A stretch of 64,000 nucleotides of DNA, from assembly GCA_963841435.1 (NCBI GenBank), contig CAWJCS010000006.1, positions 1,248,001 through 1,312,000 of the forward strand. The letters run 5' to 3'. The stretch comes from an uncultured delta proteobacterium (GTDB taxonomy: Bacteria; Myxococcota_A; Polyangia; Polyangiales; Polyangiaceae). Position numbers and translations under genes: made by a program. Shown here in pieces: positions 3,320 through 55,103 of the stretch (position 1 is its first letter; each line of letters opens with the position of its first letter). Under the pieces are notes generated by a model. The model ran no database searches and was not told where the DNA came from. It saw only the letters and a program-made list of their open reading frames with translations.

Positions 3320-4633
3320 ATGAACGGAACCAAGAAATCCAGCGTCCGCGTTGCCCTGCTCGGTTGCGGCACGGTTGGCGGCGGCGTGCTGCGCCTGCTG
3401 CGTGAGAACTCGAGCTTCCTCGCATCACGCATCGGCGCGAGCATCGACGTGACGCACGTGCTCGTGCGCGACATCGACAAGCCGCGCGTGAGCGAGTGCA
3501 AGAGCGAGTGGCTCACGGTCAACCCCGAGATCATCTTCGCGGACCCGAACGTCAACGTCGTCGTCGAGGTGATGGGCGGCGAGGAGCCCGCCAAGCGCTA
3601 CCTTTCGCGCGCGCTCGCGGCAGGGCAGGCGGTCGTGAGCGCGAACAAGCTCCTGATCGCCCACCACGGCCCGGAGCTCGTGGCCGAGGCGATCTCGCGG
3701 CGCGTCAACTTCGCGTTCGAGGCGTCGGTGGGCGGCGGTATCCCCATCATCCGCACGCTGCGCGAGGCGCTCGCGAGCGACTCGGTGTCGAGCGTGCACG
3801 CTATCCTCAACGGCACGTCGAACTACATTCTCACGCGCATGCGCGAGGCGGGGCTCTCCTTCGCCGAGGCGCTCGCCGAGGCCCAGCGCCTCGGCTATGC
3901 CGAGGCCGAGCCCTCGCTCGACGTCGACGGCCACGACGCGGCCCAGAAGCTCATCGTGATGGCGATGCTCGCTTTCGGTGCGAAGGTGAACGCCAAGGAC
4001 ATGCTCGTCGAGGGCATCCGCGAGCTCGATGAGGTCGACTTCCGCTTCGCGGAGCGCTTCGGCTTCACGCTGAAGCACCTCGGCATCGGCCACGATCGCG
4101 GCGAGTTCGTGGAGCTTCGCGTGCACCCGGCGCTCGTGCGCAAGAACAGCGTGCTCGCGAACGTCGACGGAGTTCTCAACGGTATGTTCGTCATGGGGCG
4201 CGCGCTCGGGCCGTGCCTGCTCGTGGGGCGCGGCGCGGGCGACATGCCGACCGCCGTGAGCGTCGTCGCGGATCTCGTTGACGTCGCGAGGGCGCGCATG
4301 GGCGGCGAGCCCGGCCTGATGACGCGCGGCATTCAGCTCAAGGCCCGTCCGCTCCTGCCGCAGGGCAAGGTCGAGACGCGTTACTACCTGCGCTTCGACG
4401 TCGCGGATCACCCGGGCGTCGTCGGCAGCATCGCCTCGGCGCTCGGCGGCGAGAACGTGAGCATCGAGCAAATGGTGCAGGAAGGGCGCGCCGCGGGCGG
4501 TGAGCACGGCGTGCCGGTGTGCCTCATCACGCACGTCACGGAGGAGGGCGCGCTCCTGCGCGCGCTCGGTGAGCTTGCGGAAAAGCCGTTCTTGAGGCGC
4601 GCCCCGCGCCTGATCCGGATCGAGGAGGTGTGA
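3320..4633 (+). CDS. hom: Homoserine dehydrogenase with C-terminal ACT domain
   Basis: GCGTVGGG Rossmann motif, VVSANK, FEASVGGGIPII, ILNGTSNYIL, GYAEAEPSLDVDGHDAAQK, GAGDMPTA, and ACT domain DHPGVVGSIA. Confidence 0.96.
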   Translation: MNGTKKSSVRVALLGCGTVGGGVLRLLRENSSFLASRIGASIDVTHVLVRDIDKPRVSECKSEWLTVNPEIIFADPNVNVVVEVMGGEEPAKRYLSRALAAGQAVVSANKLLIAHHGPELVAEAISRRVNFAFEASVGGGIPIIRTLREALASDSVSSVHAILNGTSNYILTRMREAGLSFAEALAEAQRLGYAEAEPSLDVDGHDAAQKLIVMAMLAFGAKVNAKDMLVEGIRELDEVDFRFAERFGFTLKHLGIGHDRGEFVELRVHPALVRKNSVLANVDGVLNGMFVMGRALGPCLLVGRGAGDMPTAVSVVADLVDVARARMGGEPGLMTRGIQLKARPLLPQGKVETRYYLRFDVADHPGVVGSIASALGGENVSIEQMVQEGRAAGGEHGVPVCLITHVTEEGALLRALGELAEKPFLRRAPRLIRIEEV

Positions 4634-5487
4634 CCTCGTCCGCACCCTCGCCGCTCGGGGTATTCGACTCGGGGCTCGGGGGTCTCACGGTGGCGCGGGC
4701 GCTCACCCAGGCGCTGCCGAGCGAGAGCATTCTTTACCTCGGCGACACCGCGCGCGTGCCCTACGGGACGCGCTCGCCCGAGACCGTGTTGCGCTACGCG
4801 CGGAGCTGCGCGAAGGTGCTCACGGCGCGCGGTGTGAAGGCGATGGTCGTCGCGTGCAATACCGTGAGCGCCGTCGCGCTCGAGATGCTGCGCGCCGAGC
4901 TCGATCTGCCCGTGCTCGGCGTCGTCGAGCCGGGTGCGCGTGCCGCCGTGCGAGCGCTCGCGGCGCTGCCCAAGCGCGAGGGCCCGCCGCCGAAGATCGG
5001 CGTGCTCGGCACGGCGGGCACCGTTGCGTCGGGGGCGTACCCGCGTGCGATCGCCCGCGAAAGCACGCGAGTCGAGGTGCTGGCGCTCGCGGCGCCGCTG
5101 CTCGTGCCGCTCGTCGAGGAGGGCTGGCTCGAGGGCGATGTGCCGCGCCTCGCCGTGACGCGCTACGTCGAGCCGTTGATCCGAGGCGGCGCACGCGTGC
5201 TCGTGCTCGGTTGCACGCACTATCCTCTCCTGGCGCCGCTCATTGCCGAGGTGGCCTCCGAGCTCGCGGGCACGGAGATCGTGGTCGTCGACAGCGCGCG
5301 GGCCACGGCGGACGACCTCGTCCGTTATTTCGACGAGGGGCGCATCGACCGCGCGCCGCCTGGTGCCACGAGCCCCCGCCTCGAGATCCTCGTCACCGAC
5401 CGACCGGCGAGCTTTCGCGAGGTGTCGAGCCGGTTCCTCGGGGTGGACTCTCCCGATGTCACGCAGATCGATCTCGGGGAAGCATAA
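4630..5487 (+). CDS. murI: Glutamate racemase
   Basis: GVFDSGLGGLTV, GDTARVPYG, VVACNTVS and VLGCTHYPLL. GTGA overlap with the hom stop. Confidence 0.97.
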   Translation: MTSSAPSPLGVFDSGLGGLTVARALTQALPSESILYLGDTARVPYGTRSPETVLRYARSCAKVLTARGVKAMVVACNTVSAVALEMLRAELDLPVLGVVEPGARAAVRALAALPKREGPPPKIGVLGTAGTVASGAYPRAIARESTRVEVLALAAPLLVPLVEEGWLEGDVPRLAVTRYVEPLIRGGARVLVLGCTHYPLLAPLIAEVASELAGTEIVVVDSARATADDLVRYFDEGRIDRAPPGATSPRLEILVTDRPASFREVSSRFLGVDSPDVTQIDLGEA

Positions 5488-5529
5488 GCGAGTAGAGGGC
5501 GTAGCCTCGCTAGGGTAAAGGTAGCCGGC

Positions 5530-7386
5530 GTGGATTCGGACGCGGAGGTTGCGGCAGCCCGCATCGGTCGGGTGATTGGCGGCAGGTACCGCCTGCTCCG
5601 CGTGCTCGGGATCGGGGGCATGGCCGCCGTCTACGAGGCTCAGGATCCCTCGGGCCAGCGGGTTGCCATCAAGCTCTTGCACCCCGAAATGGCCGCCCGC
5701 CGCGAGGTGCGCGAGCGCTTCGTGCAAGAGGGCACCGTCGCTGCCACCATCGACCATCCGGGCGTCGTGCAGACCCTGCCCCCCGAAGCCGCGGGCGACG
5801 ACGGCTACCTCGTGATGGAGCTTCTCGAAGGAGAGACGCTCCGCGCCCGCGTTCAGCGCCACGGTTGCCTGCCGCTCGACGAGGTGCTCGACCATGCCGA
5901 GCAGATCCTCGGCGTGCTCGTCGCCGCCCACGACAAGGGCGTCGTGCACCGCGACCTCAAGCCCGACAATCTGTTCGTGACGCCCGACGGGCGTGTGAAG
6001 ATCCTCGACTTCGGTCTGGCGCGCGTGCTCGACGGCGTGCCCGGGGAGCGCCGGACGCGCACGGGCGTCGCCCTCGGCACGCTCGCGTACATGGCGCCCG
6101 AGCAAGCACTCGGCCGCCGCGCCGAGATCGACGGCCGAGTGGACGTGTTCGCGCTCGGAGCGACGATGTTCCGCGTGCTCTCGGGTCGGCGCGTGCACGA
6201 GGCGGAGAGCGAGGCCGAGCTGCTCATGGCGATGGCGTCTCGCCCGGCCCCGCCCCTCGCGTCCGTGGCGCCCGACACGCGGCCCGGCGCGTGCGCGGTG
6301 GTCAACCTCGCGCTCGCGTTTTCTCGTGAAGCGCGCTACCCGGACAGCCGCACCATGCTCGGCGACGTGCGGGCGCTCCGCGCGGGTGCGGAGCCGCCAT
6401 TCGCCACGAGCCGCCTCGCGTCGCGCGACGAGGCAACACGAGCCGATGGTCCGGCTCCCTCGGGGCGCACGCAGCCGCTCGGCGCGCGCGAGCCGGCGCC
6501 GTCCCAGCGCGGCGGTACCGTGCCGCTCGCCGCCTACGGGGGCGCGGGTGCGCAGGCGCCGCCACCGGGCGGTGCTGCGCCGCAAACGGTTCTCGCAGCC
6601 GGCATGGGCGCGGGCCCGGCGGGCGCCGCCGACACGGCGCCGATGTCCGCTCGGGCGGCTGGTAGGGGTCGCACCGAGCCGCTCGTGCAACATCCGCCCG
6701 CGGTGGCGCCCGGACCCGGCCTTTCGCCTTCGGGTGCGCCCCCCGCCGGGCCCGCCAGCGCGCCCCCCGTGGCCGGCCCCGGCGTACCGCTTGCAGCGAC
6801 CTCCGGTCCACCGCCCGCCGTGGTCGCGGGTGCGCCCCCCGCCGTGATGACACGTGCGCCCACGGCACGCCGGCGTGCACTCTTGCCGATCATCGCGGTG
6901 GGTGGGGTCTCGCTCGCGCTGGGTATCGGGATCACGGTGTGGGCTATGGTGGATGCGGGAAGCTCGGGCAACGCTTCGGACGCTGGCGCCGCAGACGGCG
7001 CGGGCAAGGCGCGTGCGGCAAGCGTCGCGCTGGCGCCCAGCGCGTCGAACGTGCCCGCGCCGCCGATCCTCGCCGACACGAGCGCGCAGTCGCGCGGCGC
7101 CACCGCGGAGCGCCCGGCGCCGACGCCCGCCGCGGCTGCGCCGGCGGTGCCGCCCGTGCCGGCCGGCAGCGTCGCGCCCCCCGCGCCCGCGAGCGCGCGC
7201 GAGGGGCTGGTCGCCGCTCCGGGTGCCGAGCCGTCCACGCCATCGTCGGCGCCCGCCCCGAGCCCCGCCGCGGTCGCGGCGCCGGGCACCGCTGCAACGG
7301 CGCCGGCCTCCGCCGCGACGACGCCGCCCGCGAAGCACTTCGGTCGCGGACGCGGTCGGCTCGGTCGCCCGGCGCCGACTCAGTGA
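5530..7386 (+). CDS. Hanks-type Ser/Thr protein kinase with Pro/Ala-rich linker and one TM helix
   Basis: LGIGGMAAVY, VAIKLL, HRDLKPDN, DFGLAR, GTLAYMAPEQ and DVFALG; TM segment LLPIIAVGGVSLALGIGITVWAMV. Confidence 0.95.
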   Translation: MDSDAEVAAARIGRVIGGRYRLLRVLGIGGMAAVYEAQDPSGQRVAIKLLHPEMAARREVRERFVQEGTVAATIDHPGVVQTLPPEAAGDDGYLVMELLEGETLRARVQRHGCLPLDEVLDHAEQILGVLVAAHDKGVVHRDLKPDNLFVTPDGRVKILDFGLARVLDGVPGERRTRTGVALGTLAYMAPEQALGRRAEIDGRVDVFALGATMFRVLSGRRVHEAESEAELLMAMASRPAPPLASVAPDTRPGACAVVNLALAFSREARYPDSRTMLGDVRALRAGAEPPFATSRLASRDEATRADGPAPSGRTQPLGAREPAPSQRGGTVPLAAYGGAGAQAPPPGGAAPQTVLAAGMGAGPAGAADTAPMSARAAGRGRTEPLVQHPPAVAPGPGLSPSGAPPAGPASAPPVAGPGVPLAATSGPPPAVVAGAPPAVMTRAPTARRRALLPIIAVGGVSLALGIGITVWAMVDAGSSGNASDAGAADGAGKARAASVALAPSASNVPAPPILADTSAQSRGATAERPAPTPAAAAPAVPPVPAGSVAPPAPASAREGLVAAPGAEPSTPSSAPAPSPAAVAAPGTAATAPASAATTPPAKHFGRGRGRLGRPAPTQ

Positions 7387-7405
7387 GCGGCGGCGCCGGG
7401 ACTCC

Positions 7406-8503: not shown

Positions 8504-8545
8504 GCTTACGTCGCGGCGTGCGGCACGGCCGGCGGAGGCGCGCCA

Positions 8546-10756: not shown

Positions 10757-12037
10757 ATGTCGCGCTCCGTCGTCGCCATCGTCCGTACCCGCCCCGAAAC
10801 GGTGCTCGAAGATTACCACCGCCTGATGAATCTCGCGGGGTACCAGAACGTCGTCGACAAGAGCGCGGACACGGCCCTCAAGGTCAACATTTCCTGGCAC
10901 TTCTTCTATCCGGGCTCCTCGACGACGCCCTGGCAGCTAGAAGGCGTGATCGGCGCCATGAAGCGCGACGGGTACTCGAGCGATCTCATTCATGCGTGCC
11001 ACAACCGCACCGTCGTGATCGACGCCCACCTCGGCGAGCGCGAAAACAAGCAGCTCAACGTCGTTCAGGCCCACGGGCTCCGCAACGTGCACCTCTACGA
11101 GGGCGAAGAGTGGATCGACGTGCGTGACGCCGTCGGGGACCTGACGAAGAAGTTCTTGTGTCTCAACGAGGTGTACCCCAAGGGCTTCAAGATCCCGAAG
11201 CGCTTCATCGGCGAAAACATCGTCCACTTGCCGACCATCAAGACGCACATCTTCACCACGACGACCGGCGCCATGAAAAACGCCTTCGGTGGGCTCCTGA
11301 ACGAGCACCGTCACTGGACCCACCCGGTCATTCACGAAACGCTCGTCAACCTCTTGATGATCCAGAAGAAGATCCACCGCGGGCTGTTCGCCGTGATGGA
11401 CGGCACCTTCGCGGGCGATGGCCCCGGGCCGCGTTGCATGGTGCCGCACGTCAAGAACGTCCTTTTGGCCTCCTCCGACCAGGTGGCGATCGACGCCGTG
11501 GCGGCAAAGCTCATGGGTTTCGATCCCATGCGCGATCTCAAGTTCGTGCGGCTCGCTCACGAGCAGGGCCTCGGTATCGGTGACCCGCGCGACATCGAGC
11601 TGGTCGGTGACATCGACGCGGGCAGCGAAAATTGGCACTTCGACGGCCCGTTCAAGGAAATGACGTTCGCCTCGCGCAACCAGCATCGCATCTACTGGGG
11701 GCCGCTGAAGAAGCCCGTCGAGTGGTCGCTGAAGACATGGCTCGCGCCGTGGGCCTACGTGGCCAGCGTCGCGTACCACGACCTTTTCTGGTACCCGTAC
11801 TACGGTAAGGCTCGCGTCGAGGCCGCGCTCAAGAGCGAGTGGGGGAGGCTCTTCGCGAACTGGGGCAAGGCGTTGCCCGGCGCCGACGGGCGCGGCTACC
11901 CCGACGTCGGGGTCGAGCACCCCGAGCTCGTGCGCACGGGGCTCAAGCATTTCGCCGAGGGCCTCCGGCTCGTCGGCATGGCCGTCGCCGAGAGCCCCGA
12001 GATGAAAAACAAGCGACGCAAGACCGTCGCCGTGTAG
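10757..12037 (+). CDS. DUF362-family protein (probable Fe-S associated)
   Basis: LKVNISWH, HLPTIKTH..TTTTGAMKNAFGGL, AVMDGTFAGDGPGP and DQVAIDAVAAKLMGFDP match the DUF362 pattern. Confidence 0.85.
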   Translation: MSRSVVAIVRTRPETVLEDYHRLMNLAGYQNVVDKSADTALKVNISWHFFYPGSSTTPWQLEGVIGAMKRDGYSSDLIHACHNRTVVIDAHLGERENKQLNVVQAHGLRNVHLYEGEEWIDVRDAVGDLTKKFLCLNEVYPKGFKIPKRFIGENIVHLPTIKTHIFTTTTGAMKNAFGGLLNEHRHWTHPVIHETLVNLLMIQKKIHRGLFAVMDGTFAGDGPGPRCMVPHVKNVLLASSDQVAIDAVAAKLMGFDPMRDLKFVRLAHEQGLGIGDPRDIELVGDIDAGSENWHFDGPFKEMTFASRNQHRIYWGPLKKPVEWSLKTWLAPWAYVASVAYHDLFWYPYYGKARVEAALKSEWGRLFANWGKALPGADGRGYPDVGVEHPELVRTGLKHFAEGLRLVGMAVAESPEMKNKRRKTVAV

Positions 12038-18325: not shown

Positions 18326-19633
18326 ATGGGTATCGTGGATTTCGTCAAGGGTGGCGTCCAGCGCATGATGATCGCGCGCCCGGACGCGGACAAAGACAAG
18401 GTCGTTTTCAAGCATCCGGACCAGACGTTTTCCTTCTGGAGTCAGCTCACCGTCGATGCCGACGAATGCGCGGTCTTCTTTCGCGATGGCAATCCCGTGG
18501 CGACGCTCGGCCCCGGGCGGCACACGCTGCAGACGCAGAATTACCCGTTCCTGAACACGCTCGTCAACAAGTTCACGGGCGGCAACGTGTTCATCAGCGA
18601 GATCTTCTTCGTGCTGACGCGCCCGCTCTACAACCAGGGTTTCGGCGACACGATCGGCTCGATGCGCGATCCCGAGCTCGAGATCCGCGTGACCCCGCGT
18701 GCGTTCGGCACGTTCTCGTACCGCGTCGTCAACCCCCTGCGCTTCATCGTGTGGTTCCGCGGTCAGGCGAGTGGCGATCCGAACGACTCGCCCCGCTGGA
18801 TTCAGGACATGCTTTTCATGGGTCTGCGCGCGACGCTCACGCGCATGCTGAAGGCCGGCGAGCTCAGCCTGCTCGATCTTGGCACGTGCGGTCCCGACGT
18901 GGCGCGCGCCATCGTGCAAAGCTGTCCGGATCTTGCCGCGATCGGCGTCCAGGTGCTCGAGGTCGCGAAGCTCAACGTGAACCTTTCGGAGGAGGACCAA
19001 GCACGCATCGACGGCATGCAGGATCAGATCGTGCAGGCCAACGTCGATGCCAAGGCGGCGCAGCGCCGCATCAAGCAAGCCGAGGCCGAGGCCGCGCAAC
19101 GGCAGTTCCAGCTCGATCAGGATTTCGCGAACCGGGCGCGCTACATGAATCAGCTCGACATGGCGCGCTACCAGCAGTTTGCGGGCGCCGAGGCGGCGCT
19201 GGGCCTCGGGCAGGGTCTCGCGCAGGGCGGCGACGGCGGCGGCGCGGCGGCTGCAGGCGCGGCGGGCGGTCTCGCGCTCGGCGTCGGCATGGCTGCGGGC
19301 GGCCGCTTCGGCATGCAGGGCTATCCGCCGCCCGGCTACCCACCGCCCGGCTACCCGCCGCCCGGTTATGGTCCGCCCCCTGGCTACGGCGCTCCTCCGG
19401 GCTACCCCCCGCCTGGCTACGGCGCTCCTCCGGGCTACCCCCCGCCCCAGCAGGGTGCGGCGCCCGCTTACGCGCCGCCGCCGGCCGCGCCCGCCCCGCC
19501 GCCCCAGGCGTCTCCGGGGCCGACCGCGGGCGCCCCGGGTGAGGAGGCGAGCGCGCGGTGTGGAGCGTGTGGATCGCAAAATCCCGCGCGGGCGCGCTTT
19601 TGCGCTGATTGCGGTGGCAAGCTCTCGACTTGA
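18326..19633 (+). CDS. SPFH/band-7 (YdjI-like) protein with PPGY-rich tail and C-terminal zinc ribbon
   Basis: SQLTVDADECAVFFRDG...GPGRHTLQTQNYPFL, RAFGTFSYRV, coiled coil, GYPPP repeats and CGACG...FCADCG. GGAG RBS. Confidence 0.85.
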   Translation: MGIVDFVKGGVQRMMIARPDADKDKVVFKHPDQTFSFWSQLTVDADECAVFFRDGNPVATLGPGRHTLQTQNYPFLNTLVNKFTGGNVFISEIFFVLTRPLYNQGFGDTIGSMRDPELEIRVTPRAFGTFSYRVVNPLRFIVWFRGQASGDPNDSPRWIQDMLFMGLRATLTRMLKAGELSLLDLGTCGPDVARAIVQSCPDLAAIGVQVLEVAKLNVNLSEEDQARIDGMQDQIVQANVDAKAAQRRIKQAEAEAAQRQFQLDQDFANRARYMNQLDMARYQQFAGAEAALGLGQGLAQGGDGGGAAAAGAAGGLALGVGMAAGGRFGMQGYPPPGYPPPGYPPPGYGPPPGYGAPPGYPPPGYGAPPGYPPPQQGAAPAYAPPPAAPAPPPQASPGPTAGAPGEEASARCGACGSQNPARARFCADCGGKLST

Positions 19634-19711: not shown

Positions 19712-22144
<2,433 letters not shown>

Positions 22145-25044: not shown

Positions 25045-26121
25045 TCAGCCGCGCAAATCGGCGAGGGCGCGCAGGAAATTCCGGCCGAGGATCCTCACGA
25101 TCGTGTCGACCGGCATGCGGCGCTCGAGCAGCGCCTCGACGAGGCGCGGCAGCTCGAGGCACGTCGGCATGTCGCGGGGGGTGACGATCGAGCCGTCCCA
25201 ATCGCTGCCGAGCGCAGCGATGTCGGAGCCGCCGACACGGACGAGGTGCTCGAGGTGGCGCGCCACGCTGGCGACGCGCCCGGCGAACAGCGGGTCACCG
25301 AGGAAGGGTGCGTGGAAGAGGATGCCGACGACGCCACCCGTGTGGGCGACGGCGCGTATCTGCTGGTCGTCGAGGTTGCGCCAGTGCCGATGCGCGCCGG
25401 TGACGCCCGTGTGACTCACCATGAGCGGCAGGCTCGCGTCGTGTGCGGCGACCGCGTCCCAGAAGGCCTTGGGGCTCGCATGGGCGAGGTCGACGAAGAT
25501 GCGGCGCGCGTCGAGCGCGTGGACGAGCTCGATACCGGTCGGGCCGAGGCCGCCTGGTGAGAGCAGGCCGAGCGGCGAGCTCGTGGTGCCGACGGGGGAG
25601 CTCGAGAGGTGCACGAGCGTGACGAGCAGGAGCGTGCCGGGCGCGAGCCGGTCGAGCACGCTCGGGTCGACATCGAGCGCGTTGCCGCCCTGCACGCCGA
25701 TGAAGGCGCCGTGCAGGCCGCGGGCGCGCGCGGCGCGATATTCGGCCGCCGTCGTCACGAGCGCCACCTCGTCCGGGTGGCCGGCGAAGAGGCGCGTGAT
25801 CTCGTCCACGTTCGCGAGGAACGTCGCGACCCGCTCGGCGCCGTCACGCAGCGGGTTCGTCGTGATGATCCAGGCGGCGCCGCCCACGGCCGCCTCGCGG
25901 AGCCGCGGCAGGTCGGCGTGACCGAGGAAGAAGCCGCGCAGCGGAAACCACGGGTCGTGGCGCGTCGTCGGATCGCGGCCGAGTAGGCGGTGCCAGATAA
26001 AGGAGTTGACGTGCAGGTCGATCACGTCGCTCGCGAGGTAGACATCGACCGCTTCGCGGGAAACGCCGAGCTCGTGCGCCCACGCGCCGGGATCGGCGCG
26101 GTGGTCGAGGCGGGCGCTCAT
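25045..26121 (-). CDS. Membrane dipeptidase family (peptidase M19, amidohydrolase fold)
   Basis: IDLHVN, HADLPRLRE, FVDLAHAS, MVSHTG..HWRNLDDQQIRAVA..GGVVGI and ALGSDWDG. Confidence 0.9.
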   Translation of the reverse strand: MSARLDHRADPGAWAHELGVSREAVDVYLASDVIDLHVNSFIWHRLLGRDPTTRHDPWFPLRGFFLGHADLPRLREAAVGGAAWIITTNPLRDGAERVATFLANVDEITRLFAGHPDEVALVTTAAEYRAARARGLHGAFIGVQGGNALDVDPSVLDRLAPGTLLLVTLVHLSSSPVGTTSSPLGLLSPGGLGPTGIELVHALDARRIFVDLAHASPKAFWDAVAAHDASLPLMVSHTGVTGAHRHWRNLDDQQIRAVAHTGGVVGILFHAPFLGDPLFAGRVASVARHLEHLVRVGGSDIAALGSDWDGSIVTPRDMPTCLELPRLVEALLERRMPVDTIVRILGRNFLRALADLRG

Positions 26122-38648: not shown

Positions 38649-41306
38649 ATGTCGAAGCCGAGCCGCCGCGCAACCTACCGGGTGCAGCTCGAGCCGACCT
38701 TCGGCTTCCACTCGCTCGCGGGTATCGCCGACTACCTCGAGGGTCTCGGCGTGAGCCATGCGTTTCTTTCGCCCGTGCTGCAGGCGGTGCCGGGCAGCCG
38801 GCATGGCTACGACGTAGTAGACCACCGCGAGGTGAGCCGTGACCTCGGGGGGGCGGACGGTCACGCTCGCATGTGCCAGGCGCTCGCAGCGCAGGGCCTC
38901 GCCCAGCTGCTCGACATCGTCCCGAACCACATGGCGATCGACGAGCACAACCACGCCTGGTGGGACGTGCTCGAGAATGGACAATCGAGCCGTTTTTCTG
39001 CCTATTTCGACGTTGACTGGTCGTCCGCCGAGGAACGACTACGCGACAAGGTGCTCTTGCCGATCCTGGGCAACCACTTCGGGCGCGTGCTCGAGGCCGG
39101 CGAGATCCGCGTGCTCCGCGACGGGGCGGCGTTCGTCGTGGCCTACTTCAATCATCGCGTGCCGGTGGCGCCGCGCTCGCTCGGCGAGCTGCTTGGCGCC
39201 GCGGCGCACCGCTCGGGCTCCGACGAGCTCGCGTACATCGCGGAGGCGTTCGAGCGCCTACCGCTGCCGAGCATCATGGACACGGAGAGCCGCGAGCGTC
39301 GCCACCGTGATCGCGGCGTGCTCGTCGAGCTGTTGCGTCGCTTGCTCGCGAGGGATTCAGCGGTCGCCGAGGCCGTGGACGCCGCCGTCGCGGAGCTCAA
39401 CAACGACGACGACGCGCTCGACGACTTCCTCGGCCGGCAGAATTTCCGGCTCGCGTACTGGCGCGCCGGCTCGCAGGACCTCGGCTACCGGCGCTTCTTC
39501 GACGTCGACGGGCTCGTGGCGCTCAAAATGGAGGATCCGGCCGTGTTCCGCGAGAGCCATCGGCTCGTGCTCGGCTGGCTCACGGAGGGGCTCATCGACG
39601 GGCTGCGCATCGATCATCCCGACGGCCTGCGCGATCCAGAAGCCTATTTCGAGCGCCTGCGCGAGGTGCGGCCCGACGCCTGGGTCGTCGCCGAGAAGAT
39701 CCTCGAGCCGGGTGAGCGCCTGCGTCGCTCGTGGCGCGTCGAGGGCACGACGGGCTACGATTTTCTGAACGTCGCGCTGCGCGTCCTCGTCAATCCCGAG
39801 AGCGAGCCCGCGTTTACGGAGCTCTACCAGGGCTTCACGGGCGACAAGACGGCCTACGAGGAGCATGTGCTCGCGGCCAAGGAGCTCGTCACGCGCGACT
39901 TGCTCGGCAGCGACCTCAACCGCTTGACGACGCTCTTTCTCGGCGCCTGCGAGGGCAGGCGGCGCTTCCGCGACTTCACGCGCCACGACGTGCAGGAGGT
40001 GCTCCGCGAAACGCTGCTGCATTTCCCGGTGTATCGCTCGTACTGTCGCCCCCAGCCCACGACGCTCGACAACGTCGATCTCTTGTGGATCGCCGAGGCA
40101 ATCGGCAGGGGACGCGACCGGCGCCCCGATCTCGATCCGGAGCTGTTCGGGTTTCTCGAGAGCATCCTCACGCTGAGGGTGCGCGGCGAGCTCGAAGGGG
40201 AGATCGTGGGGCGCTTCCAGCAGCTCTCCGCGCCGGTCATGGCCAAGGGCGTCGAGGACACCGTCTTTTACCGGTATTTGCGCTTCGCGGTTCTCAACGA
40301 GGTCGGTGGGACGCCGGACCGCTTCGGCGCGCCGCTCGACGACTTTCACGCGTTCGCGGCGCGCATCGGTCGTGACTGGCCCGAGACCCTGCTCGCGACC
40401 TCGACGCACGACACCAAGCGCAGCGAGGACGTGCGCGCTCGCCTGGCGGTCCTCGCCGACGCGCCCGACACCTGGGTGAGGGCCGTGGAGACGTGGTCGG
40501 CCCGGCTCCGCGCCATCGGGGCGCCGAGCGAGGTGCGCTCGATGGAGTATCTCTTCTACCAAACGCTCGTCGGCGCGTACCCCATCGAGCGGGCGCGGGT
40601 CGAAGCGTACCTCCGCAAGGCGATGCGTGAGGCGAAGGTCGAGACGAGCTGGACCCGCGTCAACGACGCGTACGAGGAGCTCGTGCTCGACCTCGTGGCG
40701 CGCGCGCTCCGTGACGCGGAATTCCTGGCCTCCGTCGAGAGCTTTCTCCCCCCCATCGTCGCGGCGGGGCGCATCAACAGCCTCGCGCAGACGCTGCTCA
40801 AGCTCACGGCCCCTGGCGTGCCCGACATCTACCAGGGCAGCGAGGTCTGGGATCTTTCGCTCGTCGATCCCGACAACCGGCGGCCCGTCAACTATGCGGA
40901 GCGCCGGCGGCTGCTCGCCGAGGTGCTCGTGGCGAGCCCCGAAGCAGCGCTCGCCGGCATGGACCGCGGCCTGCCGAAGCTCTTCGTGCTCCGGCGTGCG
41001 CTGCTACTGCGCAAGCAATGTCCCGAGCTCCTCTCTGGCGACGCGAGCTACGAGCCGCTCCTCGCCGACGGTGAGCACGCGGGGCACGTGCTCGCCTTCG
41101 TGCGCGCCGAGCAGGTGATCACCGTCGTGCCGCGCTTCGGCCTTGCGCGCCGCGGCGCCGAGCTCGACGCGAGCCTCACTTTGCCCTCCGGCACGTGGAT
41201 CGACGCCTTCACCGGCGCCGAGCACGCCGCCGGGCGACGTCCGGTGTCGCGCCTGCTCGAACGCTTTCCCGTCGCGCTCCTCGTCCGTGACGGAGGTGGC
41301 GCGTGA
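38649..41306 (+). CDS. treY: Malto-oligosyltrehalose synthase
   Basis: ATYRVQ, GSRHGYDVVD, DIVPNHMA, YRRFFDV, GLRIDHPDGL, VAEKIL, MAKGVEDTVFYRY, STHDTKRSED and PGVPDIYQG. Confidence 0.97.
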   Translation: MSKPSRRATYRVQLEPTFGFHSLAGIADYLEGLGVSHAFLSPVLQAVPGSRHGYDVVDHREVSRDLGGADGHARMCQALAAQGLAQLLDIVPNHMAIDEHNHAWWDVLENGQSSRFSAYFDVDWSSAEERLRDKVLLPILGNHFGRVLEAGEIRVLRDGAAFVVAYFNHRVPVAPRSLGELLGAAAHRSGSDELAYIAEAFERLPLPSIMDTESRERRHRDRGVLVELLRRLLARDSAVAEAVDAAVAELNNDDDALDDFLGRQNFRLAYWRAGSQDLGYRRFFDVDGLVALKMEDPAVFRESHRLVLGWLTEGLIDGLRIDHPDGLRDPEAYFERLREVRPDAWVVAEKILEPGERLRRSWRVEGTTGYDFLNVALRVLVNPESEPAFTELYQGFTGDKTAYEEHVLAAKELVTRDLLGSDLNRLTTLFLGACEGRRRFRDFTRHDVQEVLRETLLHFPVYRSYCRPQPTTLDNVDLLWIAEAIGRGRDRRPDLDPELFGFLESILTLRVRGELEGEIVGRFQQLSAPVMAKGVEDTVFYRYLRFAVLNEVGGTPDRFGAPLDDFHAFAARIGRDWPETLLATSTHDTKRSEDVRARLAVLADAPDTWVRAVETWSARLRAIGAPSEVRSMEYLFYQTLVGAYPIERARVEAYLRKAMREAKVETSWTRVNDAYEELVLDLVARALRDAEFLASVESFLPPIVAAGRINSLAQTLLKLTAPGVPDIYQGSEVWDLSLVDPDNRRPVNYAERRRLLAEVLVASPEAALAGMDRGLPKLFVLRRALLLRKQCPELLSGDASYEPLLADGEHAGHVLAFVRAEQVITVVPRFGLARRGAELDASLTLPSGTWIDAFTGAEHAAGRRPVSRLLERFPVALLVRDGGGA

Positions 41307-43027
41307 CGCTGCTCGCCGTGTGGGCGCCAACGGCACAGCGCGTCGACGCGGTGCTCGGGGAACGTCGCGTGCCGATGGCCCGTGCACGACGCGACGGCTG
41401 GTTCGAGGTCGAGCTAGCGCTTGCGGCGGGACAAACCTACGCGTTTAGCGTCGACAATGGCCCGGCGCGACCCGATCCGCGCTCGCGGTTCCAGCCCGGC
41501 GGCGTGCACGCGCCGTCGGCCGTCGTCGAGCTGCCCGAGCCTCCGGCGGGCGCTTTCCGCCCCGCGCCGCTCGATCGCGCCGTGATCTACGAGCTGCACG
41601 TCGGCACTTTCAGCGCCGAGGGCACGTTCGACGGAGCCGTCTCGCACCTTTCTTCCCTGGTCGAGCTCGGCGTCACCCACGTCGAGCTCATGCCCGTTGC
41701 GGCCTTTCCCGGCGTGCGCGGCTGGGGCTACGACGGCGTCGCGCCCTTCGCAACGCACGCCGCGTACGGCGGTCCCGAGGGGCTCGTGCGTTTCGTGCGC
41801 GGCTGTCACGAGCGGGGCCTGGGTGTCATTCTCGACGTCGTCTACAATCACCTCGGCCCGTCGGGGAACTACCTGGCGACCTACGCGCCGTACTTCACGA
41901 GCCGCTACGGAACCCCCTGGGGCGACGCCGTCAACTTCGACGGGCCCAAGAGCGACGAGGTGCGCGCCTATTTCGTCAACAACGCGCTCGCGTGGCTTCG
42001 CGACTACGGCATCGATGGGCTCCGGCTCGACGCCGTGCACGCCATTTTCGACGGCTCCGCCGTCCATGTCCTCGAGGAGCTCGCGACGGCCGCCCGCGCC
42101 TTCGAGGCGGAGACCGGGCGCAGCGTCGTGCTCATCGCCGAGAGCGATCTGAACGATCCCAAGTTCGTCCGGCCCACCAACGAGGGCGGATACGGCCTCG
42201 ATGCGACCTGGAGCGACGATCTTCACCACGCGCTCCACGTCCTCACGACGGGCGAGCGTACCGGCTACTACGAAGATTTCGGCCGCGTCGCCGATGTCGC
42301 GAAGGCGCTGCGCACGGGCTACGTCTACGATGGCGTGCGCTCGCATTTCCGCGGCCGCCGGCACGGCCGCCCAAGCACCGGACTTTCGGGTACGGCGTTC
42401 GTCGTCAGTCTGCAAAATCACGATCAAGTGGGCAATCGGGCACAGGGCGACCGGCTGTCGCACACGGTGGGTCACGAGCTCGCTCGCGTCGCGGCGGCGC
42501 TCGTCTTGCTCTCGCCGTTCGTGCCGCTGATCTTCCAGGGTGAAGAATGGGGCGCCTCGACGCCGTTTCCGTACTTCACCGATCACGGCGAGCCGGAGCT
42601 GGCGCGCGCCGTGAGCGAGGGGCGGCGCGAGGAGTTCGTGCGCTTCGGCTGGGATCCGGCGGCGATTCCCGATCCGCAAGCGCCGGAGACGTTCGAGCGC
42701 GCGCGCCTCTGCTGGGACGAGCGTTCGGGCGGTGAGCACGCCGCGACGCTCGCCTGGTACCGCGCGCTCCTGCGCTTGCGCCGCGAGCAGCCGGAGCTCG
42801 CGGATCCCAGGCTCGAATTGGTGGACGTCGCCTTCGACGAGCGGTCCCGCTGGCTCTTGCTCCGGCGCGGCTCGGTCGGAGTCGTGACGAATTTCGGCGA
42901 CTCCGAGGTCACGCTGCCGCTCGGCACCGTGGGTGAGCCGCTCGCCGTTTCCAAGCCCGGCGTCGTCGCTTCCGAGCGCTCGCTGTCGCTGCCGGGGCGA
43001 GCCGCCGCCGTCGTGCGGCTCGCCTGA
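41303..43027 (+). CDS. treZ: Malto-oligosyltrehalose trehalohydrolase
   Basis: VWAP, PDPRSRFQP.GVH, IYELHVGTF, WGYDGV, DVVYNHLGP, GLRLDAVHAI, QNHDQVGNRA and FQGEEWGA. GTGA coupling to treY. Confidence 0.97.
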   Translation: MTLLAVWAPTAQRVDAVLGERRVPMARARRDGWFEVELALAAGQTYAFSVDNGPARPDPRSRFQPGGVHAPSAVVELPEPPAGAFRPAPLDRAVIYELHVGTFSAEGTFDGAVSHLSSLVELGVTHVELMPVAAFPGVRGWGYDGVAPFATHAAYGGPEGLVRFVRGCHERGLGVILDVVYNHLGPSGNYLATYAPYFTSRYGTPWGDAVNFDGPKSDEVRAYFVNNALAWLRDYGIDGLRLDAVHAIFDGSAVHVLEELATAARAFEAETGRSVVLIAESDLNDPKFVRPTNEGGYGLDATWSDDLHHALHVLTTGERTGYYEDFGRVADVAKALRTGYVYDGVRSHFRGRRHGRPSTGLSGTAFVVSLQNHDQVGNRAQGDRLSHTVGHELARVAAALVLLSPFVPLIFQGEEWGASTPFPYFTDHGEPELARAVSEGRREEFVRFGWDPAAIPDPQAPETFERARLCWDERSGGEHAATLAWYRALLRLRREQPELADPRLELVDVAFDERSRWLLLRRGSVGVVTNFGDSEVTLPLGTVGEPLAVSKPGVVASERSLSLPGRAAAVVRLA

Positions 43028-43034: not shown

Positions 43035-44198
43035 TCAGGGCATCACGGTGTAGAGCGCCGACATGCCGGCGAGCAGGTGGTCGTTCACGTGGCAGTGAAA
43101 TAGCCAGATGCCCGGGTTGTCCGGCACCATGTCGGCCATCACCATGGTCGCTGGCAACAGGTCGACAACGTTGACGCGCATGCCGCCGACGAGCACGGTG
43201 TTGCCGTGCCAGTGCGGCGTGTGAAGATCGACCTCGGTGCCCATGCCCATCACGTACCAGCGCACGCGGTCGCCGAGATGCATGTGCAGATCGGGGAGGT
43301 TCCCGTACACGTACCCGTTGATCGAGTGCATGAGGTTGCTCTCGCCGAACTCCTCGTCGTCGGGATCGACGGACTCGGGGTCGCCCGCGTAGGTTTCGAT
43401 GTTCTCGTCGAGGTACGGGCTCTGGTTCTCGTCGGCGACCTCGAACAGCGTGAAAAATTCGCGGTTGACGTCGATCGGCGTCGCGTCTTCGCGCGCCATG
43501 TTGCGCCGGGTGATCACCATGCTGCCCATGAGTCCCGCGTAGACGTCGGCGACCTCGTCGGTATGGCCGTGGTACATCCACATCACCGAGCTCATGTCGT
43601 TCGGCCCCGGTCCGGCGCGCTCGGGCACCTCCCAGTGGTACTCGTAGCGCCCGCCGGGCGGGACGGCGTCGTCGTCCTTGGCGCTGCCGCTCGTGCCGTC
43701 GTCGTAAGGGGCGCCCTCGGAGTCCTTCTCGTAGAAGACGCCGTGTGGATGAATGCCCGTCGAGCGCGTGGTCTTGTTGAAGAAATGCACGTGGATCGTG
43801 TCGCCGACCACGGCGCGGATCACGGGGCCCGTGAAGCCGAGGTGCTCCGTTTCCTCGCTCGGCGTGGTCTCCTCGGTGAAGCTGTCGTCGGTGTATTGCC
43901 GGAACAGCGCCTTCACGTAGGTGCTCCCCACGCGATCGGGCCCGCTTCCGACGAACACGTTCTCGTCGTCGGTGAAATCCTCTCCCGTGATGAGATTCTT
44001 GCCGCTCGGCGCGTAGTTCCAAGCAAGCTCCTCGGCCGCGATGAAGTATTCCCGCATCATCGGCTCGGGCCCCATGCCGGGAGTCGGCTCTGCAAGCGCG
44101 TCGCCGTCCGCGCATCCCGCGACGCCGGTCAGGCACGCGAGCGCCAAGCACGCGCAGAAAGTCCTACCCACTTCTTGTCCCATGGTCATCCTTGTCAT
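43035..44198 (-). CDS. Two-domain multicopper oxidase, ceruloplasmin/hephaestin-like, lipoprotein
   Basis: Copper motifs IHPHG, WMYHGH, HTPHWHG and WLFHCHVNDHLLAGM; REYFIAAEE..WNYAPSG and GPVIRA.VGD. Lipobox VAGC; GGAG RBS before ATG 44198. Confidence 0.9.
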   Translation of the reverse strand: MTRMTMGQEVGRTFCACLALACLTGVAGCADGDALAEPTPGMGPEPMMREYFIAAEELAWNYAPSGKNLITGEDFTDDENVFVGSGPDRVGSTYVKALFRQYTDDSFTEETTPSEETEHLGFTGPVIRAVVGDTIHVHFFNKTTRSTGIHPHGVFYEKDSEGAPYDDGTSGSAKDDDAVPPGGRYEYHWEVPERAGPGPNDMSSVMWMYHGHTDEVADVYAGLMGSMVITRRNMAREDATPIDVNREFFTLFEVADENQSPYLDENIETYAGDPESVDPDDEEFGESNLMHSINGYVYGNLPDLHMHLGDRVRWYVMGMGTEVDLHTPHWHGNTVLVGGMRVNVVDLLPATMVMADMVPDNPGIWLFHCHVNDHLLAGMSALYTVMP

Positions 44199-44363: not shown

Positions 44364-47695
<3,332 letters not shown>

Positions 47696-50564: not shown

Positions 50565-50873
50565 GCCGTCGAGGCCGTGCGACATGCCGGCGTGCCCGGG
50601 CCGGATAAGGTTGCACCTCCCACGAATCGCCCGTCTGGCCGGCGGGTCAGTCGTGCGCGGGGCGTCGTCGCTGGCCCGGCGCGGAAAGTTGTCGCCCAGG
50701 CAAATCGTGAGACGCCGCTCGCGCTCGTGCCCTTCGAGCGGATGGGCACGCGCGCATGCCGGCTGGCTCGCGGTCCGTGGCCGCGGTGCGTTCCTCCCTT
50801 GATTGGCCTGGCGGGCTCGGGCTAGCGTCGCTCGCCTTTCGCTGCGATTTTCCGCAAGCGATCGAGGAGGCCC

Positions 50874-51533: not shown

Positions 51534-51583
51534 GCCGAGGGCGAGGTCGCCACCGGCCGCCAGCCTCCCTCACGAAAACGCTG

Positions 51584-51656
51584 TGCCCAGAGCCGGAATC
51601 GAACCAGCGACACGAGGATTTTCAATCCTCTGCTCTACCAACTGAGCTATCTGGGC
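51584..51656 (-). tRNA. tRNA-Phe (GAA), CCA not encoded
   Basis: Minus strand reads GCCCAGATAGCTCAGTTGGTAGAGCAGAGGATTGAAAATCCTCGTGTCGCTGGTTCGATTCCGGCTCTGGGCA (73 nt): cloverleaf, GGTTCGA T-loop, anticodon GAA. Confidence 0.98.
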
Positions 51657-51855
51657 GGACCTTGGCGGCGTCTTTCGTCGCCTGACCCCCGGCCGGTCGA
51701 GACCGTCCGGGGCCACGCCTCTTAGCGCAGGGCGCTCGCCTGGTAAAGCCGGTCGAAGCTGCCCCGGGCACCGCCCGGGCCGGGGTTTTTCGCGCGGGGG
51801 GCCGAGGGGGTGGGGCGGTGTCCTCTCTTTCGGGGGTTCGAGTACTCTCCTCGAA

Positions 51856-52935: not shown

Positions 52936-52970
52936 CCGCGAGCGCCCGCGGCGATACGACGCTTCCTCAG

Positions 52971-53963
52971 ATGTCCGCTTCCCATCCGCCGAGCGCCGCC
53001 TCCACCCTGCGACACGACTACACGGTGGCCGAGGTGCGTGCACTCCACGATTTGCCGCTATTCGAGCTGCTCGACCGCGCACGCGCCGTGCACCGCGCGT
53101 ACCATCCGGACAACGAGGTGCAGCTCTGCACGCTGCTCAGCGTCAAGACGGGCGGCTGCCCCGAGGATTGCAAGTACTGCCCGCAGTCGTCGCACTACGA
53201 GACGAGCGTCAAAGGCGAGGCCATGGTGCCGCTCGCCGACGTGCTCGCTGCAGCGCGCAGCGCCAAGGAGCGCGGCGCAACGCGCTTCTGCATGGGAGCC
53301 GCCTGGCGTGAGCCGAAAGAAGGGCCGGCCTTCGAGCGCGTGCTCGACATGGTACGCGGCGTGAAGGAGCTCGGGCTCGAAGCGTGCGTCACGCTCGGCA
53401 TGCTCACCGACGCGCAGGCGACGCGCCTGAAGGACGCGGGCCTCGACGCCTACAACCACAACCTCGATACCTCGCGCGCCCACTACCGCTCGATCATCTC
53501 GACGCGCACCTTCGACGACCGCCTCGCGACGCTCCGGCGCGTGCGCGCGGCCGGCATCACCGTGTGCTCGGGCGGCATCATCGGCATGGGCGAAAGCCTC
53601 GACGATCGCGCGGGCATGCTCGTCGAGCTCGCGTCGCTCGATCCGCACCCCGAAAGCGTGCCCATCAATGCGCTCGTACGCATCCCCGGCACCCCCCTCG
53701 AACAAATGCCACCCGTGGAGCCGCTCGAGCTCGTGCGGCTCATCGCCACGGCGCGCGTCATGATGCCGAAGACGCGTGTGCGTCTGAGCGCCGGTCGCAC
53801 CGAGCTCGGCCGCGAAGCGCAGCTCATGTGCCTGTACGCCGGCGCGAACAGCATCTTCTACGGCGAAGAGCTCCTCACGACGCCGAACCCCGAAGAAGGC
53901 GCCGACCGCGAGCTGCTCAGAGTCGCGGGCCTCACGGCACAAGCGCCGGCCGTGTCCGGCTAG
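52971..53963 (+). CDS. bioB: Biotin synthase
   Basis: [64 protein letters not shown] and [10 protein letters not shown]. Confidence 0.98.
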
Positions 53964-54308
53964 GTGCGGCCGCGTGCGGCGCGGCGTGCGATGGGGCGGC
54001 ACGGCCGTCGGCGCGGTGGCGCCGCGTGCGGCGCGGTGGCGCGGTGGCGCGCGGGGCGGCGCGGTGGCGCGGTGCCGCGGGGACGGCCGCGTGCGGCGCG
54101 GTGGCGGCCGCGTGCGGCGCGGTGGCGGCCGTGTGCGGCGCGGTGGCGGCCGCGTGCGGCGCGGTGGCGGCCGTGTGCGGCGCGGTGGCGCCGCGTGCGG
54201 CGCGGCGTGGCGTGGCGTGGCGGGCGAACGCCAGCGACGGCGGCGTGCGGGGCGTCCGCCGCATGTGGCTCGGTCCGGGCTCGCGCTGGGCGCGTGCGGC
54301 TAGGTGCG
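53957..54308. repeat. G-rich degenerate tandem array; core 21-bp unit CGGCCGYGTGCGGCGCGGTGG x5 (54084-54188)
   Basis: Seen directly; bounded by a 12-bp direct repeat CGGCTAGGTGCG at 53957-53968 and 54297-54308. Confidence 0.9.
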
Positions 54309-55103
54309 AGCTCTAGCTGGGGTGGAGGTCGATGGTGGGGCCAGCTCTGGATCAACGGGGCCTGCGCGGCGGTAGCCGACTCTGAGGAGCCAGGTGCGGG
54401 CCGCGACGACCGGGATCGGCGGTGGTGGTAGCTGAGTGCGGCCTGCTCCATGGGACGCGGCTGCCTCGCTACCGAACACGAGCGAGCGTGGCCGATTCCA
54501 GCCCGCAAACCAGGCAGCGGACGAGCACGGGTTGACGAAGCCGGCCGGCAGGGCACGCGCGCCGGCGTGCTTTCCGGCGTTCAAAAGGACGTAGCTCAGC
54601 GCAGCGCGCGCGGCGCGGGGCGTGGTGAGCGCGCGCGCATGGTACCGGTCCGCGAACGCCGGTCCCCGTCGACCGAGTCGGCCGTTGAGCGCGCGCGCGA
54701 TGCGGATCGAAAGCCCCTGGACCCCGCGCGCGAGCGAGCGGCGGTCGCTCGCTTCGACGATGAGATGCAGATGATTGCTCTGCACCGAATAGTGGACGAG
54801 CCGGAAGCCGAACCGTTCGCGGCCCTGCGCGAACGCGCCGCGCACGACGGAGTACAGGGCGGCGCGGCGCAACGACGGGATGCCCGGACGCACCCGCAGC
54901 GTGACGTGAACCGGATGGTGCCGCGATAGCGTTGGCCGGGCGAGATGGGGCACACCTGGCCGCGGGCCGTTCGGCCGCCGCCCCGCGCCCCGTCGCGCGC
55001 CGCCCCACGCTCGGAAGGACAAAGACAGCTGCTTTGGCCGCAGGCGTCCGGCTCCGGAGCCCCGCGGGCGCTTTGCCGGTGGAGTGCTTTCCGCTTGTGT
55101 CAC
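54300..55103 (-). mobile_element. REP-associated tyrosine transposase (RAYT / TnpA-REP-like Y1 HUH endonuclease)
   Basis: HVTLR, VHYSVQSNHLHLIVEA (HUH), FADRYHARAL, ALSYVLLN.GKH (catalytic Tyr) and PCSS. GGGAGG RBS before GTG 55103. No TnpB partner. Confidence 0.88.

Follow-up and report, generated by a model that had tools for sequence, protein, structure and literature searches.

Asparagine codons at conserved aspartate positions in an uncultured Polyangiaceae genome: almost certainly consensus errors at GTCGAC

Several proteins predicted from a 64,000-nucleotide stretch of an uncultured Polyangiaceae genome (the window, by which we mean the whole stretch analysed) carry asparagine where their families normally have aspartate, which raises the question of whether the organism truly encodes these residues. 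A first-pass annotation had cited 12 such AAC codons and three possible silent GTT-GAC counterparts, had described the change as CGAC to CAAC, and had preferred a long-read base-calling artefact, linked to a base modification in GTCG/CGAC (often GTCGAC), to mutation or editing. All 12 AAC codons and all three silent codons (changed bases 4279, 13711 and 39014) are present in the sequence. The expected Asp was borne out at 10 of the 12: homologues have it at nine, and a public contig reads as Asp at the tenth, in a copper oxidase (Table 1). TreZ does retain CTCGACGTCGTC intact at 41825, encoding VILDVVYNH. Every supported site is a change of GAC to AAC or of GTC to GTT, a transition that replaces a true G or C. 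Two sites are less secure, hom 3521 because both PDB homologues have N and treZ 41978 because Asp is found in just 4 of 8 relatives. As argued below, the Asn-for-Asp changes are almost certainly long-read consensus errors at GTCGAC, with no real biology behind them.

Table 1. Suspect sites in the window. The base given for each site is the one thought to be changed; for sites on the − strand it is named as on the + strand.
Gene or protein	Sequence (peptide)	Positions	Strand	Base	Relatives and PDB homologues
	GTCAAC (PGRVNFDSL)	2814..2819	+	A 2817 possibly G	D 11/20, others mixed
hom	GTCAAC (WLTVNPEII)	3518..3523	+	A 3521 probably G	29 relatives: D 26, N 2, S 1
hom	GTCAAC (DPNVNVVVE)	3551..3556	+	A 3554 probably G	D 29/29; 3mtj EIDIVVE, 6dzs DVDIVVE
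hom	GTCAAC (SRRVNFAFE)	3704..3709	+	A 3707 probably G	D 30/30; 6dzs HVDLYFEA
	GTTGAC = GTT-GAC, silent (ADLVDVARA)	4277..4282	+	T 4279 probably C	
	GTCAAC (CAVVNLALA)	6301..6306	+	A 6304 probably G	D 5/5
DUF362 protein	GTCAAC (ETLVNLLMI)	11345..11350	+	A 11348	no relatives aligned
	GTCAAC (NTLVNKFTG)	18563..18568	+	A 18566 probably G	D 3/3
	GTCAAC (YRVVNPLRF)	18728..18733	+	A 18731 probably G	D 3/3
DUF4388 protein	GTCAAC (MGVVNLLQT)	20162..20167	+	A 20165 probably G	D 4/4
DUF4388 protein	GTCAAC, second (GKVVNAELA)	20264..20269	+	A 20267 probably G	D 4/4
dipeptidase	GTTGAC on + = GTC-AAC (DLHVNSFIW)	26005..26010	−	T 26007 probably C	D 6/6; aligned with the Asp of H-x-D (H-N-D) in 9h0b
glgX	CAACGTC, second context CGACGTC (EVILNVVYNH; ctc AAC gtc gtg)	37338..37344	+	A 37339 probably G	D 16/16; 7u39 ILDVVYNH, 2vnc IIDVVYNH
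glgX	GTCAAC (DMHVNGFRFD; gtc AAC ggc)	37552..37557	+	A 37555 probably G	D 16/16; MHVDGFRFD in both PDB homologues
glgX	CAACGTC (GRYRNVVRR; cgc AAC gtc gtg)	37758..37764	+	A 37759 probably G	D 16/16; PDB homologues YRDCV, YRDSI
treY	GTCAAC (RRPVNYAER)	40887..40892	+	A 40890 probably G	no relatives aligned; 6lcu DNRRPVDFA
treZ	GTCAAC (AYFVNNALA)	41975..41980	+	A 41978 possibly G	8 relatives: D 4, E 2, G 1, S 1
copper oxidase	GTTGAC on + = GTC-AAC (PIDVNREFF)	43464..43469	−	T 43466; C in public contig	no homologue aligned; GAC in public contig
treS	GTTGAC on + = GTC-AAC (SLGVNGVRLDA)	47075..47080	−	T 47077 probably C	D 3/3; 5x7u GVDGLRLDA, 5h2t GIDGFRLDA
RAYT	GTTGAC on + = GTC-AAC (AGFVNPCSS)	54531..54536	−	54533	no relatives aligned, no PDB match

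Sequence context of the changed codons

If the changes depend on context, Asp in relatives should be concentrated at AAC codons that follow GTC. Of the 27 GTC-AAC codons in the window, 15 are Asp in relatives, as compared with 11 of the 224 AAC codons in other contexts (odds ratio 24, p = 1.6e-10). A genome-wide sample of 85 ORFs that matched the fetched DNA of relatives, which was itself partly derived from the window, gave 17 of 53 and 21 of 654, respectively (odds ratio 14, p = 5e-11). The excess depends on context in both sets. A GTC-AAC codon is not always a change, because relatives have Asn at 7 of the 27 window codons (for example, GVNF at 36586, 15/15). A common context was also looked for among the remaining AAC codons that have Asp in relatives, and none was found.

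The hexamer counts point to the same palindrome. Genome-wide, 6709 copies of GTCGAC are expected and 4316 are present (0.64x), and GTCAAC and GTTGAC stand at 1.39x and 1.28x of expectation; for CTCGAC, ATCGAC, TTCGAC and GCCGAC, no depletion was seen across the genome. The two derived hexamers made up 0.52 of the sum of themselves and GTCGAC in this genome and 0.32 in 181 kb of the closest relative (G041), which is similar in GC (p = 1.7e-8), whereas the analogous fractions for CTC, GCC and ATC were the same in both. Because the GTCAAC share of the relative is already fairly high, the pattern is partly natural. The silent product leaves a corresponding trace genome-wide, in that GTT makes up 18.6% of GT[CT] codons before GAC and 1.4–3.8% before GAG, GAT, GAA, GTC and GTG.

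When all 5- to 8-mers were considered, the only standouts were GTCAAC/GTTGAC, followed by CAACGTC/GACGTTG. The change of CGAC to CAAC named in the first-pass annotation therefore extends to a second context, CGACGTC to CAACGTC, for which relatives give weak support: of 21 such codons across the genome, they have Asp at 2. False TGA stops within GTTGAC, of which few are expected, were not enriched among the isolated in-frame stops (1 of 75).

Contig strand, selection and assembly quality

A biological process cannot know in which orientation a contig is written. Genome-wide, GTCAAC occurs 2824 times and its reverse complement GTTGAC 1873 times (binomial p = 6e-44), which makes GTCAAC the most asymmetric 6-mer after poly-A. 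The excess has the same sign in all six contigs and in 27 of 32 bins of 250 kb (2 ties, 3 reversed), regardless of the sign of the GC skew; in the closest relative, the counts are 35 and 29. Genes on the + strand have 1049 GTC-AAC and 200 GTT-GAC, and genes on the − strand have 729 and 367, which shows that the counts track the contig strand. A simple two-rate strand model fits inexactly, the strand difference being 320 for Asp-to-Asn and 167 for silent changes.

Purifying selection, moreover, has been absent, since Asp-to-Asn changes, estimated at ~680 genome-wide (~0.38 x 1778), are at least as common as the equivalent silent changes, estimated at ~465.

The assembly, 7.8 Mb in just six contigs, shows other defects. 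Alignment of 84 relatives' ORFs to this genome yielded 7 frame-switch junctions, whereas the reciprocal alignment of 85 yielded none, and there are homopolymer runs of 1573 A followed by 445 T and of 191 T with 354 A. Mapping of accurate reads had been proposed as a check, and one suspect site, 43466, was seen to be covered by a near-identical contig. There, a public contig (run X1, record 4) of 250 bases over 43320–43569, with a depth of 3.9, a library type not on record and a possible origin in the same sample, differs from the window solely by C in place of T at 43466. It reads GTCGAC and restores the Asp, so that this is the sole suspect site directly contradicted by reads. Taken together, the strand bias, the lack of a silent excess, the contig at 43466, the poor assembly and the type of error uphold the earlier preference for a base-calling artefact over mutation or editing.

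Modified base or sequence context alone

The window appears to be part of a metagenome-assembled genome built from long reads, presumably with no polishing by accurate ones. The base caller or polisher would often write A for the G that precedes A in the palindrome GTCGAC; an error on the contig + strand would produce GTCAAC, and one on the opposite strand GTTGAC. Where the hexamer lies in the Val-Asp frame, the protein would either gain a spurious Val-Asn or stay the same, with the codons reading GTT-GAC, and CGACGTC would suffer the same error at a lower frequency. Judging from the hexamer ratio of the closest relative, ~30% of true GTCGAC sites may be affected, or ~1,800 genome-wide. The likeliest cause would be methylation within the palindrome, which would distort the nanopore signal; the modified base could be the A that follows G (as m6A) or the C of the CpG. 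We infer nanopore as the platform from the type of error, and methylation as the cause; we think it probable that the consensus errors at GTCGAC, and less often at CGACGTC, arise from a methylated base.

That the artefact belongs to an already known kind is supported by two reports. In the first, methylation motifs lead to systematic nanopore consensus errors (PMC6591954); at the Dcm motif (CCWGG), a modification missing from base-caller training caused consensus errors at any depth (Wick et al. 2019, PMC6591954). As in our case, the Dcm errors are systematic and persist into the consensus, but the motif is different, the modified base is probably different, and the errors were scored against a reference genome, whereas ours are deduced from homologues, k-mer statistics and one contig. 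In the second, nanopore bacterial assemblies contain methylation-linked A/G and C/T ambiguities that mostly conceal a true G or C; these are wrong in the assembly at some sites only, and the R/Y error class is ascribed to methylation and is gone with PCR-amplified DNA (PMC11610573). The motifs are minimally RA/TY, with RACG/CGTY in one strain (Lohde et al. 2024, PMC11610573), and both accommodate C[G>A]AC in GTCGAC as well as C[G>A]ACGTC. The two cases also share transitions only, reverse-complementary motifs and a limited fraction of wrong sites (~30% here); GTCGAC is not among the motifs named in the available part of that report, and nanopore is our presumed platform.

The cognate methyltransferase was expected to lie outside the window. 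For the four families searched this holds, every match being elsewhere in the genome: PF01555 (three full and two partial), PF00145 (one, in two frames), PF02086 (one) and PF02384 (three places, one weak). Methyltransferase genes are present, but none of the matches to these families could be tied to GTCGAC. The hexamer concerned is also the recognition site of SalI. Restriction-modification of the SalI type involves adenine methylation, and the G miscalled here lies immediately before the expected target adenine of such an enzyme. In contrast to a SalI-type system, none of the methyltransferases matched in this genome is assignable to GTCGAC, and restriction-enzyme families, looked for beside the three N6/N4 methyltransferases, were not found there.

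One could, alternatively, envision a long-read consensus error that depends on context only, in which GTCGAC and CGACGTC k-mers are misread in high-GC DNA with no modified base. This reading fits all of the artefact evidence equally well, no match to the four methyltransferase families was identified as cognate, and both contexts are made up of the triplets GTC and GAC. We nevertheless consider it unlikely, because palindromes like those affected are what restriction-modification enzymes recognize, the look-alikes CTCGAC and GTCGAG are unaffected, and PMC11610573 ascribes this class of error to methylation, with loss upon PCR amplification. The closest relative, whose platform is not on record, also lacks the strand bias.

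Genuine asparagine as an unlikely alternative, and consequences for the predicted proteins

The methylated-base reading also has to be weighed against those in which the organism truly has Asn. In the first, 5-methylcytosine in the CpG of GTCGAC is deaminated to give GTTGAC or GTCAAC. The products match the C-to-T change expected at GT[C]GAC, and a C5-cytosine methyltransferase gene in this genome adjoins an HhH-GPD glycosylase gene. We think that real mutation is very unlikely, because it could not favour the arbitrary + strand of six contigs, Asp-to-Asn at invariant positions is no rarer than silent change, Hom and GlgX would each have to bear three changes of strongly deleterious effect, and the otherwise identical public contig has C at 43466. 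A hotspot of real 5-methylcytosine deamination was rejected on two expectations: in place of a synonymous bias, there were an estimated ~680 Asp-to-Asn against ~465 silent changes, with invariant Asp hit, and in place of strand equality, GTCAAC outnumbered GTTGAC by 2824 to 1873 and did so in every one of the six contigs. A very recent burst of deamination at methylated GTCGAC, real in the DNA of the dominant population and too young for selection, with the public contig coming from an unmutated sister population, is extremely improbable.

To an equally slight degree, one might credit a natural sequence, in which the lineage avoids the GTCGAC palindrome and truly uses Asn. The GTCAAC share of 0.32 in the closest relative exceeds that of the CTC, GCC and ATC contexts, and the Asn found in relatives at 7 of the 27 window codons is also in keeping with it. 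Avoidance would, however, proceed through synonymous codons and spare invariant Asp; same-genus relatives have Asp in 16/16, 29/29 and 30/30 cases at several sites, and both the strand asymmetry and the read evidence at 43466 oppose this reading. A-to-I recoding, in which the DNA truly has A and AAC in the mRNA is edited to a GAC-like codon that restores Asp function, has nothing in its favour beyond the need for Asp at these positions and is scarcely conceivable, because it accounts for neither the silent GTT-GAC nor the contig-strand bias, and it is unnecessary, given that the difference is already in the DNA (G, or C on the + strand, in the contig at 43466).

If the changes are consensus errors, the predicted proteins of this genome probably contain several hundred false Asp-to-Asn substitutions, with many falling in catalytic or metal-binding motifs; within the window, they would number three in GlgX, up to three in Hom, and one each in TreS, TreY and the dipeptidase, in which the Asp at 26007 is presumably a metal ligand. 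The frameshifts compound the problem. It would then be wrong to infer inactive enzymes, pseudo-enzymes or unusual active sites from this assembly. A count of k-mer asymmetry between reverse complements proved to be a quick, reference-free screen for artefacts of this sort. As a by-product, the errors suggest that GTCGAC, possibly along with CGACGTCG, is modified in this uncultured Polyangiaceae bacterium.

Asparagine codons at conserved aspartate positions

The first-pass annotation had named twelve AAC codons in the window where the protein families normally have Asp. All twelve were found, each with a C directly 5′. Ten of them fall within GTCAAC, which appears as GTTGAC on the plus strand when the gene is on the minus strand, and the other two within CAACGTCGTG. 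The silent GTT-GAC sites that it had listed, three in number, were also located, and TreZ retains CTCGACGTCGTC (VILDVVYNH), as it had stated. In the window, which is C6:1248001-1312000 of the genome studied, GTCAAC occurs 33 times, GTTGAC 20 times and GTCGAC 38 times.

Residues in homologues were taken from solved structures and from tblastn searches of the window ORFs against the DNA of same-genus genomes; the closest genomes compared have a DNA identity of about 70–78%. Homologues have Asp, not Asn, at most of the cited sites, which agrees with the earlier claim (see the table). No relatives aligned at the DUF362 (11348) and RAYT (54533) sites in the tblastn search of same-genus DNA, and a PDB search with RAYT gave no match. 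Where relatives have Glu opposite a GTC-AAC codon, the Asn may be a miswritten Asp or may be genuine.

Sites and features in the window (bare coordinates) and on contigs C2, C5 and C6 of the genome studied
Location	Feature	Observation
	GlgX, three sites	Asp in solved structures (ILDVVYNH, MHVDGFRFD; YRD in two structures); Asp in 16/16 relatives at each
	Hom, three sites	Asp in solved structures at 3554 (EIDIVVE, DVDIVVE); Asp in 29/29, 30/30 and 26/29 relatives
	TreS	Asp in solved structures (GVDGLRLDA, GIDGFRLDA); Asp in 3/3 relatives
	TreY	Asp in solved structure (RRPVDF)
	Dipeptidase	H-N-D in solved structure opposite the window's H-V-N; Asp in 6/6 relatives
	DUF4388 protein, two sites	Asp in 4/4 relatives at each
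6304	Site	Asp in 5/5 relatives
18566, 18731	Sites	Asp in 3/3 relatives at each
41978	TreZ	Mixed: Asp in 4/8 relatives
27213, 28338, 36622	GTC-AAC codons	Glu in 7/7, 5/5 and 12/15 relatives
17111-18239, minus strand	Gene split over two ORFs that overlap	17111-17734 and 17556-18239, junction near 17766
55467-55958	Two adjoining tandem arrays within a long GC-rich open frame	First: 16-bp units x 6.1, CCGGTCGCGTCAACGC, one GTCAAC per unit; second: 21-bp units x 19.9
C2:851351-853368	Homopolymer runs	1573 A then 445 T
C6:1694909-1695473	Homopolymer runs	191 T then 354 A
C2:6749-7674	PF02384 N6 methyltransferase match	Two frames, profile positions 2-257 and 238-307
C2:544769-545802	C5-cytosine methyltransferase (locus L075)	Two frames, 71 aa and 368 aa; flanked by HhH-GPD DNA glycosylase and methylase-associated MTaX1 protein
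C5:1636625-1637380	N6/N4 methyltransferase (locus L070)	Adjoins PPIase gene

The excess of Asp-to-Asn changes was tied to the codon pair GTC-AAC, in line with the proposal of a sequence context. Asp was the majority residue of relatives at 15 of the 27 GTC-AAC codons in the window (Asn at 7, Glu at 3, mixed at 2), as compared with 11 of the 224 other AAC codons (odds ratio 24, p = 1.6e-10). In a wider sample of 85 crude ORFs matching relatives' DNA at ≥55% identity, Asp stood opposite 17/53 GTC-AAC codons and 21/654 other AAC codons (odds ratio 14, p = 5e-11), and Asn stood opposite none of 61 GTC-GAC codons. No common context was seen among the other AAC codons that face Asp in relatives.

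The genome (7.78 Mb in 6 contigs, 69% GC, 95% complete, 2.7% contaminated; public records label homologues of one of its proteins Polyangiaceae) contains 4316 GTCGAC sequences against a Markov expectation of 6709, and GTCAAC (2824) and GTTGAC (1873) are present at 1.39 and 1.28 times expectation. Genome-wide, CTCGAC, ATCGAC, TTCGAC and GCCGAC showed no depletion. Two same-genus genomes, G003 and G019, were rejected as a k-mer baseline because their GC content (63–65%) and their ratios in all contexts differ, and the closest relative, G041, was therefore used instead. The converted fraction was 0.52 in the genome studied and 0.32 in 181 kb of G041 (67% GC; p = 1.7e-8), whereas the fractions for the CTC, GCC and ATC analogues agreed between the two. 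With 0.32 as the natural baseline, some 6,100 true GTCGAC sites would be expected, of which about 1,800 (about 30%) would be miswritten. A search for false TGA codons, created by GTCGAC written as GTTGAC in another frame, placed 1 of 75 isolated in-frame stops in GTTGAC, a result that is uninformative because only 96 GTCGAC sites lie in that frame.

Contig-strand bias, a second context and read evidence

The 2824 and 1873 occurrences of GTCAAC and GTTGAC, which are reverse complements, constitute the largest 6-mer asymmetry except poly-A. The GTCAAC excess has the same sign in 6/6 contigs. When the contigs are divided into 250-kb bins, 27 of the 32 show it (2 ties, 3 reversed), independently of the sign of GC skew. 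Because contig orientation is arbitrary, such a bias can come only from the consensus process. The ORF set used for codon counts was crude (stop-to-stop frames, GC3-filtered, covering 58–64% of each contig), with coding bases even across strands (2.44 vs 2.41 Mb). Plus-strand genes had 1049 GTC-AAC and 200 GTT-GAC pairs, as compared with 729 and 367 in minus-strand genes, so that the two numbers follow the contig strand. GTT made up 18.6% of GTC and GTT codons before GAC, as compared with 1.4–3.8% before GAG, GAT, GAA, GTC and GTG. Rough estimates from this set are about 680 Asp-to-Asn and about 465 silent conversions, which indicates that non-synonymous changes at invariant residues are not selected against.

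With GTCAAC and GTTGAC masked, the most asymmetric 7-mer was CAACGTC (1290 vs 1001 for GACGTTG, z = 6.0), whereas AACGTC without the leading C was, by subtraction, symmetric (1696 vs 1651). Both GlgX sites in CAACGTCGTG, which are invariant, fall in this second context, CGACGTC apparently written as CAACGTC. The second context rests on the strand asymmetry and these two sites, with weak genome-wide support from homologues: relatives have Asp at 2/21 nnC-AAC-GTC codons genome-wide (p = 0.16) and at 2/8 in the window.

A 250-base contig (depth 3.9) from a public sequencing run, X1, matches 43320–43569 with one difference: at 43466 it carries C for the window's T. With that base the site reads GTCGAC, and the copper oxidase regains its Asp codon. 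This read-level contradiction concerns one site; the other identical pieces listed span no suspect site. X1 was the one public run that matched the genome, with only 0.05 of sampled words; most of its 182 pieces are less than 95% alike and come from other organisms, and joints and depth are uninformative here.

A probable base-calling error and its alternatives

Frame-switch junctions numbered 7 among 84 relatives' ORFs aligned to the genome, as compared with 0/85 in the reciprocal test, and had no obvious homopolymer context. One G041 ORF aligns across both frames of the split minus-strand gene in the window, so that an assembly indel is the probable cause of the split. Two methyltransferase genes are each split across frames, one of them the PF02384 match at C2:6749-7674, a further probable frameshift. 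The giant homopolymer runs on C2 and C6, which yield the largest k-mer strand asymmetry of the genome, are almost certainly assembly artefacts.

In both contexts, C-G-A-C would have been written as C-A-A-C, equivalent to G-T-C-G written as G-T-T-G on the other strand. PMC6591954 describes systematic nanopore errors at methylation motifs that persist in the consensus. In PMC11610573, errors in native R10.4.1 data are described as A/G or C/T ambiguities, with G or C as the correct base in most cases; RACG/CGTY was the error motif in one strain, RA/TY was the minimal shared motif, and PCR removed the errors. The changes in both contexts here are of the same class as those described there (PMC11610573). 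In light of these published errors, we read the pattern at GTCGAC and CGACGTC as a probable methylation-induced base-calling error, and we infer that nanopore was the platform of the assembly. One possible alternative is an error that depends purely on sequence and involves no modified base. The strand bias, the lack of selection, the X1 contig and the poor assembly make real mutation very unlikely.

Candidate methyltransferases and consequences

Under methylation-induced error, the pattern hints at GTCGAC, the SalI site, and perhaps also CGACGTCG, as modified motifs. The first-pass annotation had placed the responsible enzyme outside the window, and indeed all matches to PF01555, PF00145, PF02086 and PF02384 lie elsewhere in the genome. 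Profile searches gave three full and two partial PF01555 matches, one PF00145 gene in two frames, one PF02086 match, and PF02384 matches at three loci, of which one is divided over two frames and another is weak. The candidate enzymes lie at C5:1323682, C5:1636625, C6:1000658 and C3:1365235, together with the C5-cytosine enzyme at C2:544769. Annotation with Pfam and NCBIfam yielded no more than general names for adenine or cytosine methyltransferases, none specific for GTCGAC, and identified no restriction enzyme adjoining the candidates. The glycosylase beside the C5-cytosine methyltransferase may repair T:G mismatches arising from 5mC deamination. The C5:1636625 enzyme looks like a conserved orphan methyltransferase. 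Its best 119 database matches (64–80% identical, about 340 residues, some labelled Polyangiaceae) have source names that give no specificity, and its 526-aa frame is over-extended.

Context, strand bias, lack of selection, the contig at 43466 and assembly quality together support the modification-linked base-calling error that had been preferred over real mutation or editing. The Asp-to-Asn pattern is almost certainly a technical artefact, of a class already described, and not mutation, and protein sequences from this assembly are probably unreliable at such sites.
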